A DNA stretch of 64,000 bases from Glaucostegus cemiculus. Taxonomy: Eukaryota. Shown here piece after piece: positions 29,326 to 64,000 of the stretch. How positions within the stretch are numbered: position 1 is the stretch's first letter; each line of letters opens with the position of its first letter. The position numbers and the translations under genes were made by a program. Under the pieces are notes generated by a model. That model did not search any database and was not told the origin of the DNA. It saw only the letters and a list, made by a program, of their open reading frames with translations. The DNA lies in NCBI GenBank assembly GCA_976551045.1, contig CDPCPM010000370.1:496001-560000 (forward strand), written 5' to 3'.

Positions 29326-31499
29326 TTTTACTCGTCATGTTCGACGCTTGCGGCAACTCTTCCACATTTAGTTTGCAACTCTCGGTCTGAGCGCCTTTTC
29401 TGCCGTGGGAGTTCGATGGAATGTGCACTCGCCCAAGGGAAAATGATGACCGAGAAAAAAGAAAGGTCAAATATCACAGAAATTACTTGAAACAGCGTGG
29501 AAATCAGGCCACACCAGTGTGAAGGGTCCGCTGCAGGTAAATGAATGTTGGTCACATTCCACATGCTTTCTTGCTTCCCCACCCGAAACAAAACAAATAA
29601 CAGAACCATTCCGCAGTCGAGTCAACATCTCTTAAAAAGAGATCAAGTTGTCATTTCTTGTTGAAGAAGATTGATCAGTTCTACCTCAGCGTGAGTGGTA
29701 GCGGGAAGCAGAGCCGCACGGTGGCCGAGCTGAATGTGCCCTCATTGTATTGACTGAAGGGGACAATTATCTCTGTGTTTGTTTCCATGTGTTGTAATCC
29801 AGGACACAATTCAGAGTTGCGCAGTTATATGTAATTTCATACACTCATCTTTATATCAACTTGAATATCAGACAGTAGCCACACTGTTCTGGTCAATAAT
29901 CCATGTCTTTCTGGCAGTACGGCTAGTGGAATGTTCTTTATGGTCAGCTGGCTGGATTTACTTCAGTACTGAAGGTGTAAATATATTCATAGTCCCTGCT
30001 GAAGGTATTTTACAGTTCCACTGATGCAGAGCTGATGCCCGAGGGATGCAGTAACCCGGTGACAAATTCTGAACTCCCTTCTCTCAATCGCCGCGTGGAT
30101 ACCTCCAGGTAGTTTGTATTTCCTCAAACAGAAAACACGCGTGAGTATTGTATCGGTTAATTGCAGCTCGTTCGAAGGTGGAAGGTAGAACCTAGAATAT
30201 GTGGTTATGATGAAAATTAATGCTCTGTTAAAGTTATATTTCCTTCTCTCAGGTTACAATGAAAGACTTCCTCTCTTTGCACTTTTACTTCGTTTGTATA
30301 GTCATCTGCCTTCTATATCCCGGTTAGATCCCCCAACCTTTCTAGCAATGGGACCAGGCTCTATCACGTCTCTCTCTCTCCCTCTCTCTCTCGCTCTTCC
30401 CTCCCTCTCTTTCCTCACTCTCGCTCTCTCTCTCCCTCCCTCTGTTACTGTGTATATATAGATATTGATATCACTATCTCTTTTTCTCTCTTTCTGTCAG
30501 ATGCATAACAAGCTGTAAACGGAGAAGTACTCCACATTCTCCAGTCTATACAAAGAACTGAAGACCACTTTCCATCGAATCACTTTGGAGTATATCATAC
30601 ACATCTTCCCTTCAGGCTTTGCATGCATCCCAGCGTTCAGAGCTGAGAATTGGTCTTGACCCTGAACGTCCGGTCAAGTCGTTATTTATGTACTAACTTT
30701 ATGACTCCCTTGATTTCTCACGCTATGCAGTTTCTTATCCATCCCATGATGCGTTAGCTTTTCTAACAACTTGCTCTCCATCCCCTGACACTTTCAACCA
30801 AATATGGACATATCCCAAATCTTTGTATTTCCATATTCACCATTTAATGGTGCAGACTTGTCTATACAGCCTCTTACTTACCCTCCAAAATTCATCCGTG
30901 TCATTCCTCAAGGATAAACGTCATCTGTAACACGTGATGCTATTTCAGCAGTTTGTCTGTTTCATTTTGAAATTCGTGACCATCCTCTTCCCAATTTCCC
31001 ACAACGCTCTTTGGGGTTTCTCCATTTTTTGTACCTGAGCACTGCTAGCCGAATTCATCATATGAACACATATTCAGAGAGACAGTGACTGTTGTCCGTC
31101 TTCTGGACAACGCCACTGTGCCATCCTGGGAACTCCGAAAAAATGAATCATCTCGTCTCCACAGTGTGTTTGTCTCGCATTTAAGTTGTCCTCCCCCTAC
31201 AATACCAGATGCTTAACTTCTACAACTGCAGTTATGTTATCGAAAATGCTTGGAAGTTCATGGACTCATGAAAAATCAGTAGAAAACATCTCAATGACTT
31301 GGACATTACCTACCTTCCGCTTAATCTTTATTCATTATCGCTCTTCTTAAAATAGACTTCCATTGAAACTGCAGAGACTCAAATGACCGTATTAATTAGC
31401 GTAAACCTACAAACGACTGGCCTGGTTTATTTGCTCGGAAAATTGTCACAAACAGCGATGATGATGGAAGCTAATTGCCACTCCAGAGATTCCGTTACG

Positions 31500-31507
31500 T
31501 ATAAATA
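31500..31507 (+). promoter_or_regulatory. TATA box of GPCR copy 1
   Basis: TATAAATA starts 66 bp before the ATG and is conserved at 49961-49968 in copy 2. Confidence 0.6.
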
Positions 31508-31565
31508 GGTACATGACGTGCATGGTTCGGAGGTGACACTCACCAACCCAGAGTTGTCGCGGAGA

Positions 31566-61008: not shown

Positions 61009-62248
61009 GTAAGTATCGGAAATCCTCGCCTACTGTACGGCTGTTAGCATTTATTAATATTCGACTCAGTGTGGCATCGATTTAACTCAAAGGGAAAGAG
61101 GGACCGATGCAGAGCGTTTTTTATAAAGCGATCTCGGCTGATGTGGAACCATCGGGGAGTATTTCGGAGAGATATATTCTACCCCCATGGTAGGCTGATT
61201 TGCAATCGTGAGGGTGTGGGATGGACAGGAAACATGGGCAAATAAATCAGAAGGAGACATTCTCTGAAATAGAGGATTTGGGAGAAAGTGTGCAGTCTGA
61301 CACGTGTCAGAACGGTCATTTAATTCTTAGTAAATGAGGTAATGATCGAACATTCTCGCAGTGACTTTCGGGAATTGAGACAGTGGCAGGGAAGTCAGCG
61401 TTGTGCAAGCGCAATCAGATTGATTACAGGTTGAGGGAATGTCCTATGAAGAGTGATTGTAGAGCATGGGGCCACGAACACTGGATGTTGGAAAATTGAG
61501 AGGTAATCTCTTCCATATTTACAATCTGCAGAGGGAGATTGTAGAGAAGATGCAGAATCTCAGTGGGTCTGCAACCGCTGTGAAAACTGTACAGACAAAC
61601 CCCAACCGACAACTGACAGACGGCGGGAAAAAGTTATCAGTAGAGCAAATTATACACCGCTGGCAGCAAAAATCAATCGACCAAGATCTGCAAATAAAAT
61701 GAAACCAACTGGAACTCATGGAGTTGAAAATAATATTCTGAAAAAAAGACGTTCCATTGAAATTAAAATTTCACTAGAATGGGGAGAGAAGCTGTTTTAC
61801 CACGGGTTGCGTTAAACTGTATTTAACATCGGCCCACAATTTTCAAGTGCCCGTTGGTCTCTGTTGTTGTTCAGTCTTATCCTTGGGTTGTTGATCTTGC
61901 TCTGCACTGCACCGTAACAGCAAAGACATAATTTTATAGAGAGTGAAACCCTCATTGAAAAATAAATCTGAACATGTTGTTAGTAACGTATTTGCCTTTC
62001 ACCAACAAGTCATGGAAACAAACATTCAAAATAGAACGTCACAGAACAGATTCAAGCAATTCGAGACATTTTCGAGGAACCAGTTCTCTGAAGAAAGTCA
62101 CTAGATTCATTTCCCAGGGAAATTAAAGATGTTTGCACACATTTTGAATGTCGCAAACTATGGGAACCCGGAATCTCATCCTCTGTGTCACCCACTCTCC
62201 ACCCACTACCAGGAAGTTAATAATAATCTCTTATTTTATTTCCTGCAG

Positions 62249-62551
62249 ATTCCACGAACAAGCTGTCCCAGAGTCCACAGGTGCATTCTTCTGCTGGTGC
62301 CTCTGTTACTTTAAGATGCGAAAATATTGGTTTCTGTCCGTACACAGTCCACTGGTATCGGCAGTTCGCAGGACAGGCGCCCGAATTCCTGCTCCAGAGG
62401 CACAGCTCGGGAGAGCAGGATAAGGAAAACGCTGCGGGAGGACGAATTTCTGGTGATTTTGATGTTGGCACGAAAGTCAGCGAGTTAGAGATTTCAAGAC
62501 TACAGCTGAGCGACATGGCTGTGTATTACTGTGCAAAGAGCCCTCTCGCAG
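62249..62551 (+). CDS. Leaderless supporting TCR V-delta (STCRdV), cassette 2
   Basis: Acceptor CTGCAG. Reads SVTLRCENIGFCPYTVHWYRQ..DMAVYYCAK. RSS: CACAGCG 62552-62558, 23-bp spacer, ACAAAAACC 62582-62590. Confidence 0.9.
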
Positions 62552-64000
62552 CACAGCGATGCAGAGTGGTGAGAAAGCCATACAAAAACCTCAGTGTGGT
62601 GGATTACAGACACACAGCGCTGTAGAGCACGGAGACAGCTGCAGCCAAACCTCAGTGTGGTGCGGATTACTGAATAATGTGCACAGAGAGAAAGAGGAAC
62701 GTTAAATCATTTTTGCACTTACAGTCATAGGGAAGGGAGGGAGCCGACCTATTCAACAGCAATGCATTCCCAGAGCAGAATTCAAACATTGCCTTTTGAA
62801 TAACTTGCTGCAAGCTGTCACCAAGCTTGTTACAGACAATAAAGTTTCTAACGTGGGAATGCAAACATGAAATTTTTGAAGAGCAGACTCTCATAGTTAG
62901 TTATGTTACACTGTATCAATGCAGCTAACTCGCAGTTTATGTTTGCCGACACGATACAGATAACTTACCTACTCTCTGTCGTATCCATGCCATTCTCTTT
63001 TACCTCGAGAGTGCAGAGGTGGCCTCATGTGACGGCATGAACTTATTCAGACCACGAATCATGTACATCCCCTTTTCTACCCCAAAATATCAATCTTCGT
63101 ACCGTATACGACTGCTCATTGTTGAAATAATTCCAACTTTCTCACAGTCATGTTTACCTCGGGATGACAACAGTATGGAGTTAACTGGGACAGCTATGAA
63201 GGAAACAGTCGGACTTCAGCTTTTAGCAGGACCTGAGCGAACTCAGAAAACAGCTGAATTCAGTACGCCAGCGCTCCCTGGCTGGACTACAGCGGTGACT
63301 GCGGATTTATTCCTTACAAATGGTGTCGCAGATTAATGACACTTGGTTGTGTTACGAAGTAGCTTACTATAGGCAAATATCCCTTTAAGATGGGACATTG
63401 TGTGTGTGTGCAACGTATTACGTCAACAGAAGATAAGACTAACGTGAAGAGGTCATTACAAGAAAGAAAAAGAGAGGAGAGAGAGAGAGAGACAAACAGA
63501 CAAAGAGAGAGAGGAAGGAGAGACGGCAGCCTGTTTTGTTTCTGTCGATGGATGAAGGACAGTAACTGTGTTTGTCACTAAAATCCGTGGATGGATTTCT
63601 GGAGTAGTCCAGTGGAGTTCACTTTGTCGGTAACCTGTAGAAGGACACAGGTGTTTGCGTGGACAACCACATTTTGGATGCTCTTCAGAGTGGCAGAGAC
63701 TGTGGAACAAGGTGATGGAATTCACCTTGCTGCTAACCTGTAGAAGAACACAGGTATTTGCATGGACAGTCACAGTCCAGGAGTTTTCGGGGTGAGAAAG
63801 TCACTACCGAGTTTGCCCTGAAGTGTCGTCTGAGTTTTGAGTGGAACATTCGGATTTCGTGATTCCTCTCTAAGTTCTCTCTATATCTATGTTTTGTCTT
63901 CGGTGGACAGTGCTTATGAAGAAGCCTTTATTCGTGTTTCATCTTACGGCTTATTGAACTGAACTTTAAGAACTAATTCCTGGACTTGGAGTTTAGGAAT

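Follow-up and report, generated by a model that had tools for sequence, protein, structure and literature searches.

Two intact GPR139-like GPCR genes lie among the V segments of a TCR alpha/delta locus in the window, i.e., the whole 64,000-nucleotide stretch of Glaucostegus cemiculus DNA analyzed here. They belong to a clade that we consider probably a set of V-array passengers, copied and lost with adjacent Vs and selected for a job outside T cells; "outside T cells" draws on geometry and on promoter inference. We favor this reading because of the family size, the array-wide spread of copies, the lack of enrichment at NAR-TCR cassettes, the breakage of about half of the copies, the low dN/dS, the shared promoter, and the inversional geometry. 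In our best reading, the GPCRs would be under birth-and-death evolution, as olfactory receptors at the mammalian TRA/TRD locus are. Although antigen-receptor loci are known to harbor passenger genes, the literature searched does not report a selected GPCR clade that alternates with Vs over ~2 Mb and is shared with skates and sawfish.

The two genes, GPCR1 and GPCR2, are laid out as follows (coordinates of features are window positions unless marked contig).

31472..31506, plus strand: GPCR1 promoter module, TAATTG (31472), CTCCAGAGA (31481), TATAAAT (31500)
31566..31635, plus strand: GPCR1 exon 1, 23 codons plus 1 nt, GT donor
33058..33980, plus strand: GPCR1 exon 2, spliced product 330 aa, class A 7TM; AATAAA at 34126
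49932..49967, plus strand: GPCR2 promoter module, TAATTG, CTCCAGAGA, TATAAAT (49961)
50027..50096, plus strand: GPCR2 exon 1
51555..52528, plus strand: GPCR2 exon 2, spliced product 347 aa; AATAAA at 52559

The initial annotation took both genes to be intact, and an open frame, GT/AG splice sites, a TATA box, and AATAAA are indeed present in each. Both match Pfam 7tm_1 and have the seven TM helices, DR motif, and ECL2 cysteine of class A (rhodopsin-type) receptors; the structure model of a 93%-identical sawfish protein (P0001) contains seven helices at a pLDDT of 84.8. Their proposed GPR139-like identity is supported by sequence and by fold: GPR139 is the top solved-structure match by sequence (E 4e-11; 46 bits) and ranks first in the fold comparison of the P0001 model, with an identity of only ~24% in the fold alignment. 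Orthology with GPR139 was rejected given these low values and a many-copy family that is not one-to-one. P0303, P0296, P0332, and L212 score weakly or nil against human GPR139, i.e., a true GPR139 orthologue was not found among them, and our family tree is one without any true GPR139 row. GPR139 is reported to be activated by L-Trp and L-Phe, i.e., to be an aromatic-amino-acid receptor. By analogy with GPR139, its closest characterized relative, the window GPCR protein probably senses small molecules or peptides. GPR139-like subtypes of fish and coelacanth are named GPR210A/B in a portion of PMC6504862; with human GPR139/GPR142 and GPR210A/B the ray proteins share GPR139 as the best structure match by both sequence and fold, but they differ by their low identity and by the massive expansion here.

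The cassettes and V segments of the window are the following.

35313..35600, minus strand: conventional TCR alpha/delta V, open frame, 23-RSS (CACCGTC / ACAAAAACC)
44469..44568, plus strand: NAR-TCR cassette 1 leader exon
44708..45039, plus strand: NAR V1 exon (to 45001) and 23-type RSS with a 22-nt spacer
45396..45410, plus strand: NAR D1, flanked by two 12-spacer RSSs with weak nonamers
45803..45860, plus strand: NAR J1 with 23-RSS and GT donor
47097..47438, plus strand: leaderless supporting V-delta 1 (to 47399; Cys in CDR1) and 23-RSS
59611..59710, plus strand: NAR-TCR cassette 2 leader exon
59860..60191, plus strand: NAR V2 exon (to 60153) and RSS
60545..60560, plus strand: NAR D2
60951..61008, plus strand: NAR J2
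62249..62590, plus strand: leaderless supporting V-delta 2 (to 62551) and 23-RSS

Both NAR cassettes of the window comprise a leader, a NAR V, a 12/12 D, a J, and a leaderless supporting V with RSS. The NAR Vs have their own leader, a Cys in the a-b loop (MECEP / KECES), and GQFFK without the Trp of WYRK, and their best solved-structure matches are mostly VNARs; own leader, a-b loop Cys, and absence of that Trp are the hallmarks of the NAR-TCR NAR V in the part of PMC1845163 that describes it. The supporting V-deltas have no leader, a Cys in CDR1 (SGFCPY / IGFCPY), and a splice acceptor immediately 5' of the V. V-23, 12-D-12, and 23-J RSSs are present in three cassettes, which would give each its own D and J in a layout for two separate rearrangements.

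A unit of GPCR, NAR V-D-J, and supporting V-delta had been described as occurring twice in tandem. The two blocks are real and align at 70-79% over ~12 kb, and a third GPCR and cassette unit follows in tandem at contig 571.6-583.3 kb, just beyond the window, so there are three tandem units and not two. Nor are the units uniform: the conventional V at 35313-35600, oriented like D-J-C and not mentioned in the initial annotation, sits inverted between GPCR1 and the first cassette and has no counterpart in copy 2. Related blocks pair a GPCR with conventional Vs and contain no cassette. The supporting Vs of the three tandem cassettes form one clade (SH-aLRT 82), and that of a fourth GPCR-preceded cassette (contig 1.905 Mb) belongs to a different one, so the juxtaposition of GPCR and cassette may have arisen twice.

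On the minus strand of the same contig, J arrays span 61.7-158.5 kb and 210-223 kb, D segments lie at 229.9 and 229.4 kb, and C1-type exons map to 198 and 56 kb; the C exons were identified by direct inspection of the DNA (profile PF09291 gave no C-alpha match), with alpha/delta naming by position. D-delta, J-delta, C-delta, a long J-alpha array, and C-alpha lie in cis, as in a TCR alpha/delta locus, and these D-J-C segments support the earlier placement of the GPCRs within its V array. The TCR-delta D-J-C and the J-alpha/C-alpha part lie to the left of the window, ~310 kb from the cassettes, on the opposite strand; the plus-strand cassettes of the window therefore face away from D-J-C and would rearrange by inversion, with GPCR2 not excised. 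It had been suggested that deletional rearrangement of supporting V1 would excise GPCR2 and thereby tie GPCR content clonally to cassette choice; given the layout, however, joining would take an inversion of 313.5 kb with GPCR2 beyond its limits, and, judging from segment orientation, we reject this clonal-excision mechanism. All four GPCR-preceded cassettes are in inversional orientation, from which the GPCR would land 12-16 kb from the new V-D joint. As a separate observation, the inversional orientation of all four counts against reading the GPCRs as passengers.

The 1.46 Mb examined of the 3.07-Mb contig contains 45 GPCR matches, a lower bound for the locus; the exon-2 frame is intact in 21 of them, and the other 24 are broken. 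The initial annotation saw the GPCR as a repeated part of the NAR-TCR unit, but an intact same-strand GPCR lies ≤13 kb upstream (a distance picked after the data were seen) of 4/27 cassettes vs 8/76 conventional Vs (p=0.51), the same rate, in stretches centered on GPCRs and cassettes, a choice that may inflate the conventional-V rate. The remaining 23 of the 27 cassettes have no such GPCR; with broken copies counted, the numbers are 5/27 and 18/76 (p=0.79), and the closest V element is a conventional one for 33 of the 45 copies. The GPCR as a standard or obligatory cassette component was likewise rejected, with no one-per-cassette pairing and no enrichment over conventional Vs. A supporting V that inverts onto D-delta could still bring its upstream GPCR near a putative delta enhancer, such that each NAR-TCR clone would express its own GPCR. 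The orientation of the four cassettes and the 12-16 kb distance agree with this, as do the distinct residues of the window subclade at predicted pocket positions 3.33, 3.36, 6.48, 6.51, and 7.42. We nevertheless hold such coupling to be very unlikely: only 4/27 cassettes carry the GPCR, without enrichment, three of the four stem from one triplication, the promoter module also occurs in copies far from cassettes and loosely in arrays on another contig, and no enhancer was located.

No GPCR copy was found in the 150 kb sampled of the distal pure-V zone, so the clade is restricted to the mixed NAR/IgH/V zone, where IgH C exons also lie. This confinement counts against the passenger explanation, which leaves it unaccounted for.

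Genome-wide, 128 family matches are spread over 37 contigs, and 103 further sites counted by hand bring the total to at least ~230; the relatives of the family counted number 2294. Paralogues scattered through the genome with no association to cassettes, which the initial annotation itself had named as speaking against its proposal, are thus what was found, on at least 37 contigs. In the family tree, proteins of skates, sawfish, manta, and sharks group (SH-aLRT 99 and 100) with 18 of the 19 rows from the window's contig; the V-array copies form one clade common to skates and sawfish, and orthologue-like pairings with skate proteins persist. One skate member of the clade and a NAR-TCR model share the same scaffold size (208,102 bp) and have near-adjacent accession numbers, synteny in other species being judged from chromosome or scaffold sizes and accession numbers. 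Outside the chondrichthyans, the family's closest relatives come from salamander, coelacanth, and teleosts, with 28-33% identity; the coelacanth protein has its own separate match of 61% on another contig, and, as to a tie of the salamander relative to TRA/TRD, neither PMC12529555 nor PMC12698447 mentions GPR139.

By pairwise Nei-Gojobori, dN/dS between GPCR1 and GPCR2 is 0.27 (bootstrap 0.18-0.41), and over the 153 pairs of 18 copies the median is 0.18 (range 0.10-0.34). These values, well below 1, point to purifying selection, contrary to the neutral value that the initial annotation regarded as fatal to its idea. Neutral hitchhiking or pseudogene decay, without any function, fits the 24 broken copies of the 45 but is extremely improbable overall: all 153 pairs contradict it for the intact copies, the window pair is more alike in exon 2 (88.5%) and proximal promoter (85%) than in the intron (72%), and the pairings with skate proteins were retained. 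Diversification of the pocket is not significant in the 29 predicted pocket columns (pN 0.18 vs 0.16 in the other extracellular-half columns, p=0.28; 0.10 in the intracellular halves).

The promoter blocks are conserved across 17 copies, including copies far from cassettes. In a genome-wide pattern search, 3 of the 13 non-training matches lie 75-77 nt 5' of a family-type exon 1, on contig C196. With the homeodomain (TAATKR) and O/E-like (YYYCARRRR) definitions given in an excerpt of PMC5638857, the pair occurs in 11/17 V-array promoters vs 1.5% of 20,000 random windows, a post hoc comparison among related sequences; it occurs in 0/182 V-upstream windows, and the strict pair in 0/8 promoters on other contigs. 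The module appears to recur in part in distant arrays and to resemble odorant-receptor elements.

EBF1 is a B-cell factor, and the clade could be a set of immune-tissue receptors (e.g., of B cells or thymic/epigonal stroma) kept for co-regulation with IgH clusters, in which EBF1 would read the O/E-like site. The zone shared with IgH C exons, the O/E-like match in 11/17 promoters, and contig C132, where the largest nearby family arrays flank IgNAR-type clusters, speak for this. We consider it unlikely, however, as the O/E-like motif is short and was spotted post hoc, and the stretches examined of C412, C30, C416, and C34 have no Ig/TCR match. On C412, 100 kb hold a V-free tandem array of six family copies with no V or C match, and no V or C match lies beside family copies in the stretches examined of C30 (40 kb), C416 (20 kb), C34 (10 kb), and C257 (10 kb). 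A general co-amplification of the family with Ig clusters was rejected on these five contigs, C132 being the exception.

Returning to the passenger explanation, an ancestral GPCR copy would have entered the V array before the split of skates and the Glaucostegus lineage, and segmental duplications of 15-25 kb blocks would then have multiplied it; the window would be a local triplication of one block that by chance includes a NAR cassette. Each copy would rely on a TATA promoter of the family type that belongs to it rather than on TCR elements. Gamma-delta cells using window-type cassettes would keep the upstream GPCR, inverted, and cells using distal minus-strand Vs would delete the entire GPCR-bearing stretch from that allele, which makes a mature T-cell role unlikely. 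On this view, dozens of receptor genes are predicted to undergo somatic inversion or deletion in T cells.

In mammals, the 5' end of TRA/TRD has olfactory receptor genes amid its TRAV1 segments, according to the relevant part of PMC2275272. They too encode class A GPCRs and come from a large family in tandem arrays, and they are passengers among alpha/delta Vs, as the ray genes probably are, but they belong to another GPCR family and are few, at the distal edge, whereas here at least 45 copies extend along ~2 Mb. Unlike them, the ray GPCRs lie between D-J-C and most Vs and so would be inverted or deleted upon rearrangement. The trypsinogen genes inside TRB (portions of PMC2275272 and PMC12529555) are likewise functional non-immune genes, locally duplicated within a rearranging interval, but they are clustered in blocks, at the ends and in the V-to-C interval, whereas the ray GPCRs alternate with single Vs and NAR cassettes. 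The elasmobranch antigen receptor complex and NAR-TCR, in the sections concerned of PMC1845163 and PMC12227049, share the cassette anatomy, linked IgNAR, and an intermingling of NAR-TCR, TCR V, and IgM genes that point either way. The main text of PMC12227049 has no GPR, GPCR, or "G protein," and its supplements no "G-protein," "GPR," or "receptor 139"; the literature searched, with some key papers outside its scope, has no description of a GPCR clade alternating with TCR alpha/delta Vs. The copies offer markers with which to follow how block duplication gave rise to the V and NAR-TCR repertoire.

In size, the GPR139-like family far exceeds described cartilaginous-fish olfactory repertoires, e.g., the catshark's 34 V2R/OlfC and 4-9 genes per other family in the portion of PMC10116579 that lists them. 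It is a large tandem-array family with birth and death, as chemosensory repertoires are. There is a modest chance that the chondrichthyan GPR139-like family, which would number hundreds of genes in each genome, be akin to an aromatic-amino-acid receptor, and have a promoter of homeodomain, O/E-like, and TATA elements, is an overlooked fifth chemosensory repertoire, one clade of which has resided in the TCR alpha/delta V array since before skates and the Glaucostegus lineage diverged, in independent parallel to the mammalian TRA/TRD olfactory receptors; if true, this would account for the apparent scarcity of odorant receptors in sharks and rays.

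The two GPR139-like genes of the window, GPCR1 (exons 31566-31635 and 33058-33980) and GPCR2 (50027-50096 and 51555-52528), have the open frames, splice sites (GT/AG), TATA and AATAAA signals that the initial annotation had described; their spliced products are 330 and 347 aa long and match Pfam 7tm_1. They sit in a duplicated block (30.7-48.1 kb versus 49.1-63.4 kb, 70-79% in pieces by self-BLAST of the window). In line with the defining features of PMC1845163, both plus-strand NAR-TCR cassettes (leaders at 44469 and 59611) have an NAR V with its own leader and a Cys in the a-b loop but without the WYRK Trp, and a supporting V that lacks a leader and has a Cys in CDR1. 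Both carry the RSS set V-23, 12-D-12, 23-J, and most of the NAR V's best matches among solved structures are shark VNARs. The proposed tandem unit of GPCR, NAR segments and supporting V stands insofar as the block is duplicated; its description as a simple twofold repeat needs amending, i.e., an inverted conventional V (35313-35600) is present in copy 1 and absent from copy 2, and a third GPCR and cassette unit lies beyond the window at 571.6-583.3 kb of the contig (C370, 3.07 Mb, of which the window is 496,001-560,000). Both GPCR introns hold, at the same site, a fragment that we take to be LINE-like (32380-32800 and 50860-51330), so this fragment is older than the duplication; further presumably LINE-like fragments lie at 48200-49150 and 57880-58455. 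The window also holds five more conventional V segments of TCR alpha/delta at 1243-27176, alternating in orientation and with good 23-RSSs.

Conventional V segments (window positions)
1596, plus strand, conventional V
10115, minus strand, conventional V
14874, plus strand, conventional V
16029, minus strand, conventional V
27155, plus strand, conventional V

Reading C370 from 40 to 240 kb gave the D-J-C layout, from which the arrays are assigned as J-alpha/C-alpha and D-J-C-delta.

D-J-C features (C370 positions)
56 and 198 kb, minus strand, two C1-type exons
61.7-158.5 kb, minus strand, long J array
210-223 kb, minus strand, short J array
229.9 and 229.4 kb, minus strand, two D segments, the first with 12- and 23-RSSs

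The D-J-C region is complete within C370 20,001-240,000 and entirely on the minus strand, with roughly 80 J-alpha, 7 J-delta, two D-delta, C-delta and C-alpha; long simple-repeat arrays lie 3' of C-alpha. Two IgH-like V segments, one per orientation, are near D-delta (237,284-237,958 and 260,061-260,486), a location expected for TCR-associated Ig-like Vs. Oppositely oriented segments join by inversion, and the plus-strand window cassettes are opposite to the minus-strand D-delta; their joining would therefore be inversional, with predicted sizes of 313.5 kb and 328.7 kb. By this geometry, a rearrangement using supporting V1 would invert GPCR1 and spare GPCR2, whose ATG is 2.6 kb past the supporting V1 RSS, and the earlier idea that deletional rearrangement of this V excises GPCR2 has to be abandoned. 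The same inversional orientation is seen in 18 of the 27 cassettes found on C370. That inversion might couple GPCR expression to the rearranged clone we regard as very unlikely. Many distal C370 Vs are on the minus strand, and rearrangement of such a V would delete all GPCR copies that lie between this V and D/J.

In the 1.46 Mb of C370 covered, tblastn gave 45 GPCR matches, located between 267 kb and 2.23 Mb; 21 have an intact and 24 a broken exon-2 frame, and some of the weak ones (35-60 bits) may be heavily decayed or false matches. Searching with exon-1 DNA found additional copies on C370 outside these 1.46 Mb, so the counts are lower bounds; a 150-kb sample of the distal pure-V zone gave no copy. 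Of the cassettes, 4/27 have an intact GPCR on the same strand no more than 13 kb upstream (a post hoc distance, in DNA sampled around GPCRs and cassettes), versus 8/76 of the conventional Vs covered (Fisher p=0.51); when broken copies are counted too, the figures become 5/27 versus 18/76 (p=0.79). For 33 of the 45 copies, the V element closest by is a conventional one. Three of the four GPCR-preceded cassettes belong to one supporting-V clade (SH-aLRT 82) and the fourth to a different one. Blocks homologous to those of the window carry, at 595-604 kb and 805-816 kb, a GPCR and an inverted V without an adjacent cassette. The GPCR association is not cassette-specific. The 27 cassettes of NAR V and supporting V (18 plus, 9 minus) span 0.54-2.22 Mb, with IgH C exons among them at 370, 997, 1299, 1313, 1516, 1740, 1792 and 1855 kb. 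A second, triplicated block (1,567-1,581, 1,636-1,653 and 1,718-1,731 kb) comprises an NAR cassette, an opposite-strand decayed GPCR fragment and an inverted V, followed ~10-15 kb downstream by a GPCR exon 1.

Genome-wide, searching with exon 2 yielded 128 matches with a score from 19,935 candidates, by hand count: 19 on C370, 58 on contig C132 and 51 on 35 other contigs. A coelacanth protein query gave 118, of which two are other subtypes and 13 overlap the exon-2 set; combined, about 230 distinct family places are a hand-counted lower bound that may include some assembly duplicates. At least 58 GPR139-like genes form two arrays at 1.3-4.5 Mb of C132, flanking at least three IgNAR-type clusters (2.27-2.68 Mb); in a stingray such clusters share a chromosome with TCR alpha/delta, according to PMC12227049, and we infer that C132 is linked to C370. 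Contig C412 has six copies in 100 kb, in which no V or C match was found. With paralogues on at least 37 contigs and the cassette counts given above (4/27 versus 8/76), the proposal that the GPCR is a repeated part of the NAR-TCR unit is not supported, and its paralogues are scattered rather than tied to cassettes. Broken retroelement-like frames (RT, RNase H, integrase) lie inside the C412 array at 338-340 and 368-370 kb, and contig C196 (~1.0-5.6 Mb) also carries a very large array, whose members are more divergent. The protein database searched has 2294 relatives at E<=1e-20; among the best 120, those named are nearly all cartilaginous-fish 'probable GPR139'.

Seventeen intact copies share, at fixed spacing, a TTGTTTG block (presumably Fox-like), TAATTG, CTCCAGAG(A/G) and TATAAAT. 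Homeodomain TAATKR and O/E-like YYYCARRRR are odorant-receptor elements in a figure legend of PMC5638857. The two occur within 12 nt in 11/17 V-array GPCR promoters versus 1.5% of 20,000 random windows, in 0/182 windows upstream of V exons and, as the strict pair, in 0/8 family promoters from other contigs. A looser pattern gave 14 genome-wide matches versus 8 in the control; 3 of 13 non-training matches sit 75-77 nt 5' of a family-type exon 1 on C196, two being near-identical and exon 2 being absent from the 5.3 kb read. These C196 exons indicate that the module is, at least in part, common to the family and not dependent on the TCR locus. Its resemblance to odorant-receptor elements was noticed post hoc and serves as a lead; that the family might be a chemosensory repertoire of cartilaginous fishes is a tentative and rather unlikely idea. 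Fox and homeodomain sites are compatible with endodermal sensory cells; EBF factors are also active in B cells, and expression of the clade in immune tissue seems unlikely to us.

Two quick ML trees, built without two divergent intact C370 copies and, in the second, without 11 rows, placed 18 of 19 C370 rows in one 35-row clade (SH-aLRT 99 and 100). It also holds one C132 copy and skate, sawfish and manta proteins, with four shark proteins as sister group; other species' rows were the window gene's top matches, a choice biased toward this clade. At a support of 99-100, skate proteins are the partners of several C370 copies, so the skate split is younger than more than one copy. In sawfish, three skates, manta and horn shark, the top GPCR matches and NAR-TCR models agree in the length of their chromosome or scaffold. 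Their accession numbers lie next to or among each other in sawfish, thorny skate and little skate (a single scaffold of 208,102 bp) and are ~1000 apart in horn shark; all this is indirect evidence of co-location. dN/dS is 0.27 for the window pair (bootstrap 0.18-0.41) and 0.10-0.34 (median 0.18) over 153 pairs of 18 C370 copies. Neutral copies would be expected near 1, and neutrality is thus highly improbable even with so many broken frames. Window pair identity is 88.5% in exon 2, 85% in the proximal promoter and 72% in the intron. Predicted pocket columns, numbered by motif anchors, are not significantly more variable than the remaining extracellular-half columns (p=0.28); at several pocket columns the window subclade differs from the other copies in its residues. 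Of the 18 GPCRs, 10 have Arg and 8 have Trp at position 6.48, which largely co-varies with 7.42 (Glu/Asp versus Gln); this suggests two functional types.

The GPCR feature of the TCR locus is real, and its explanation differs from the initial one. Judged from sequence, the GPCRs are probably passengers: duplications of V-array blocks would amplify them and the same turnover would lose copies, each copy would be run by its own promoter, and selection would act on ligand sensing outside mature T cells. Olfactory receptors among TRAV1 (PMC2275272) and trypsinogens in TRB (PMC2275272 and PMC12529555) are passenger precedents. In literature searches at the level of titles and abstract openings, on GPR139, GPR142 and GPCRs in sharks, other cartilaginous fishes and NAR-TCR, no account of the family or its TCR-locus position came up. 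The term GPR does not occur in PMC12227049 (main text and supplements), PMC10620051 or PMC10116579, nor do GPR139 or GPR142 in the main text of PMC11979771.

Among solved structures, human GPR139 is the nearest by sequence, at a distant 46 bits, and ranks first by fold, at 24% identity, for the predicted model of a sawfish protein 93% identical to the window GPCR; the nearest named relatives outside cartilaginous fishes (salamander, coelacanth and teleost proteins) are at 28-33%. The genes are therefore GPR139-like rather than orthologues of GPR139. GPR210A/B are extra GPR139-like subtypes that PMC6504862 notes for fishes and coelacanth, sharks not being included. Two single-copy GPR139-like loci of other subtypes, on contigs C233 and C46 (sharing 61% and 36% identity with the coelacanth protein), are possibly GPR210-type genes.
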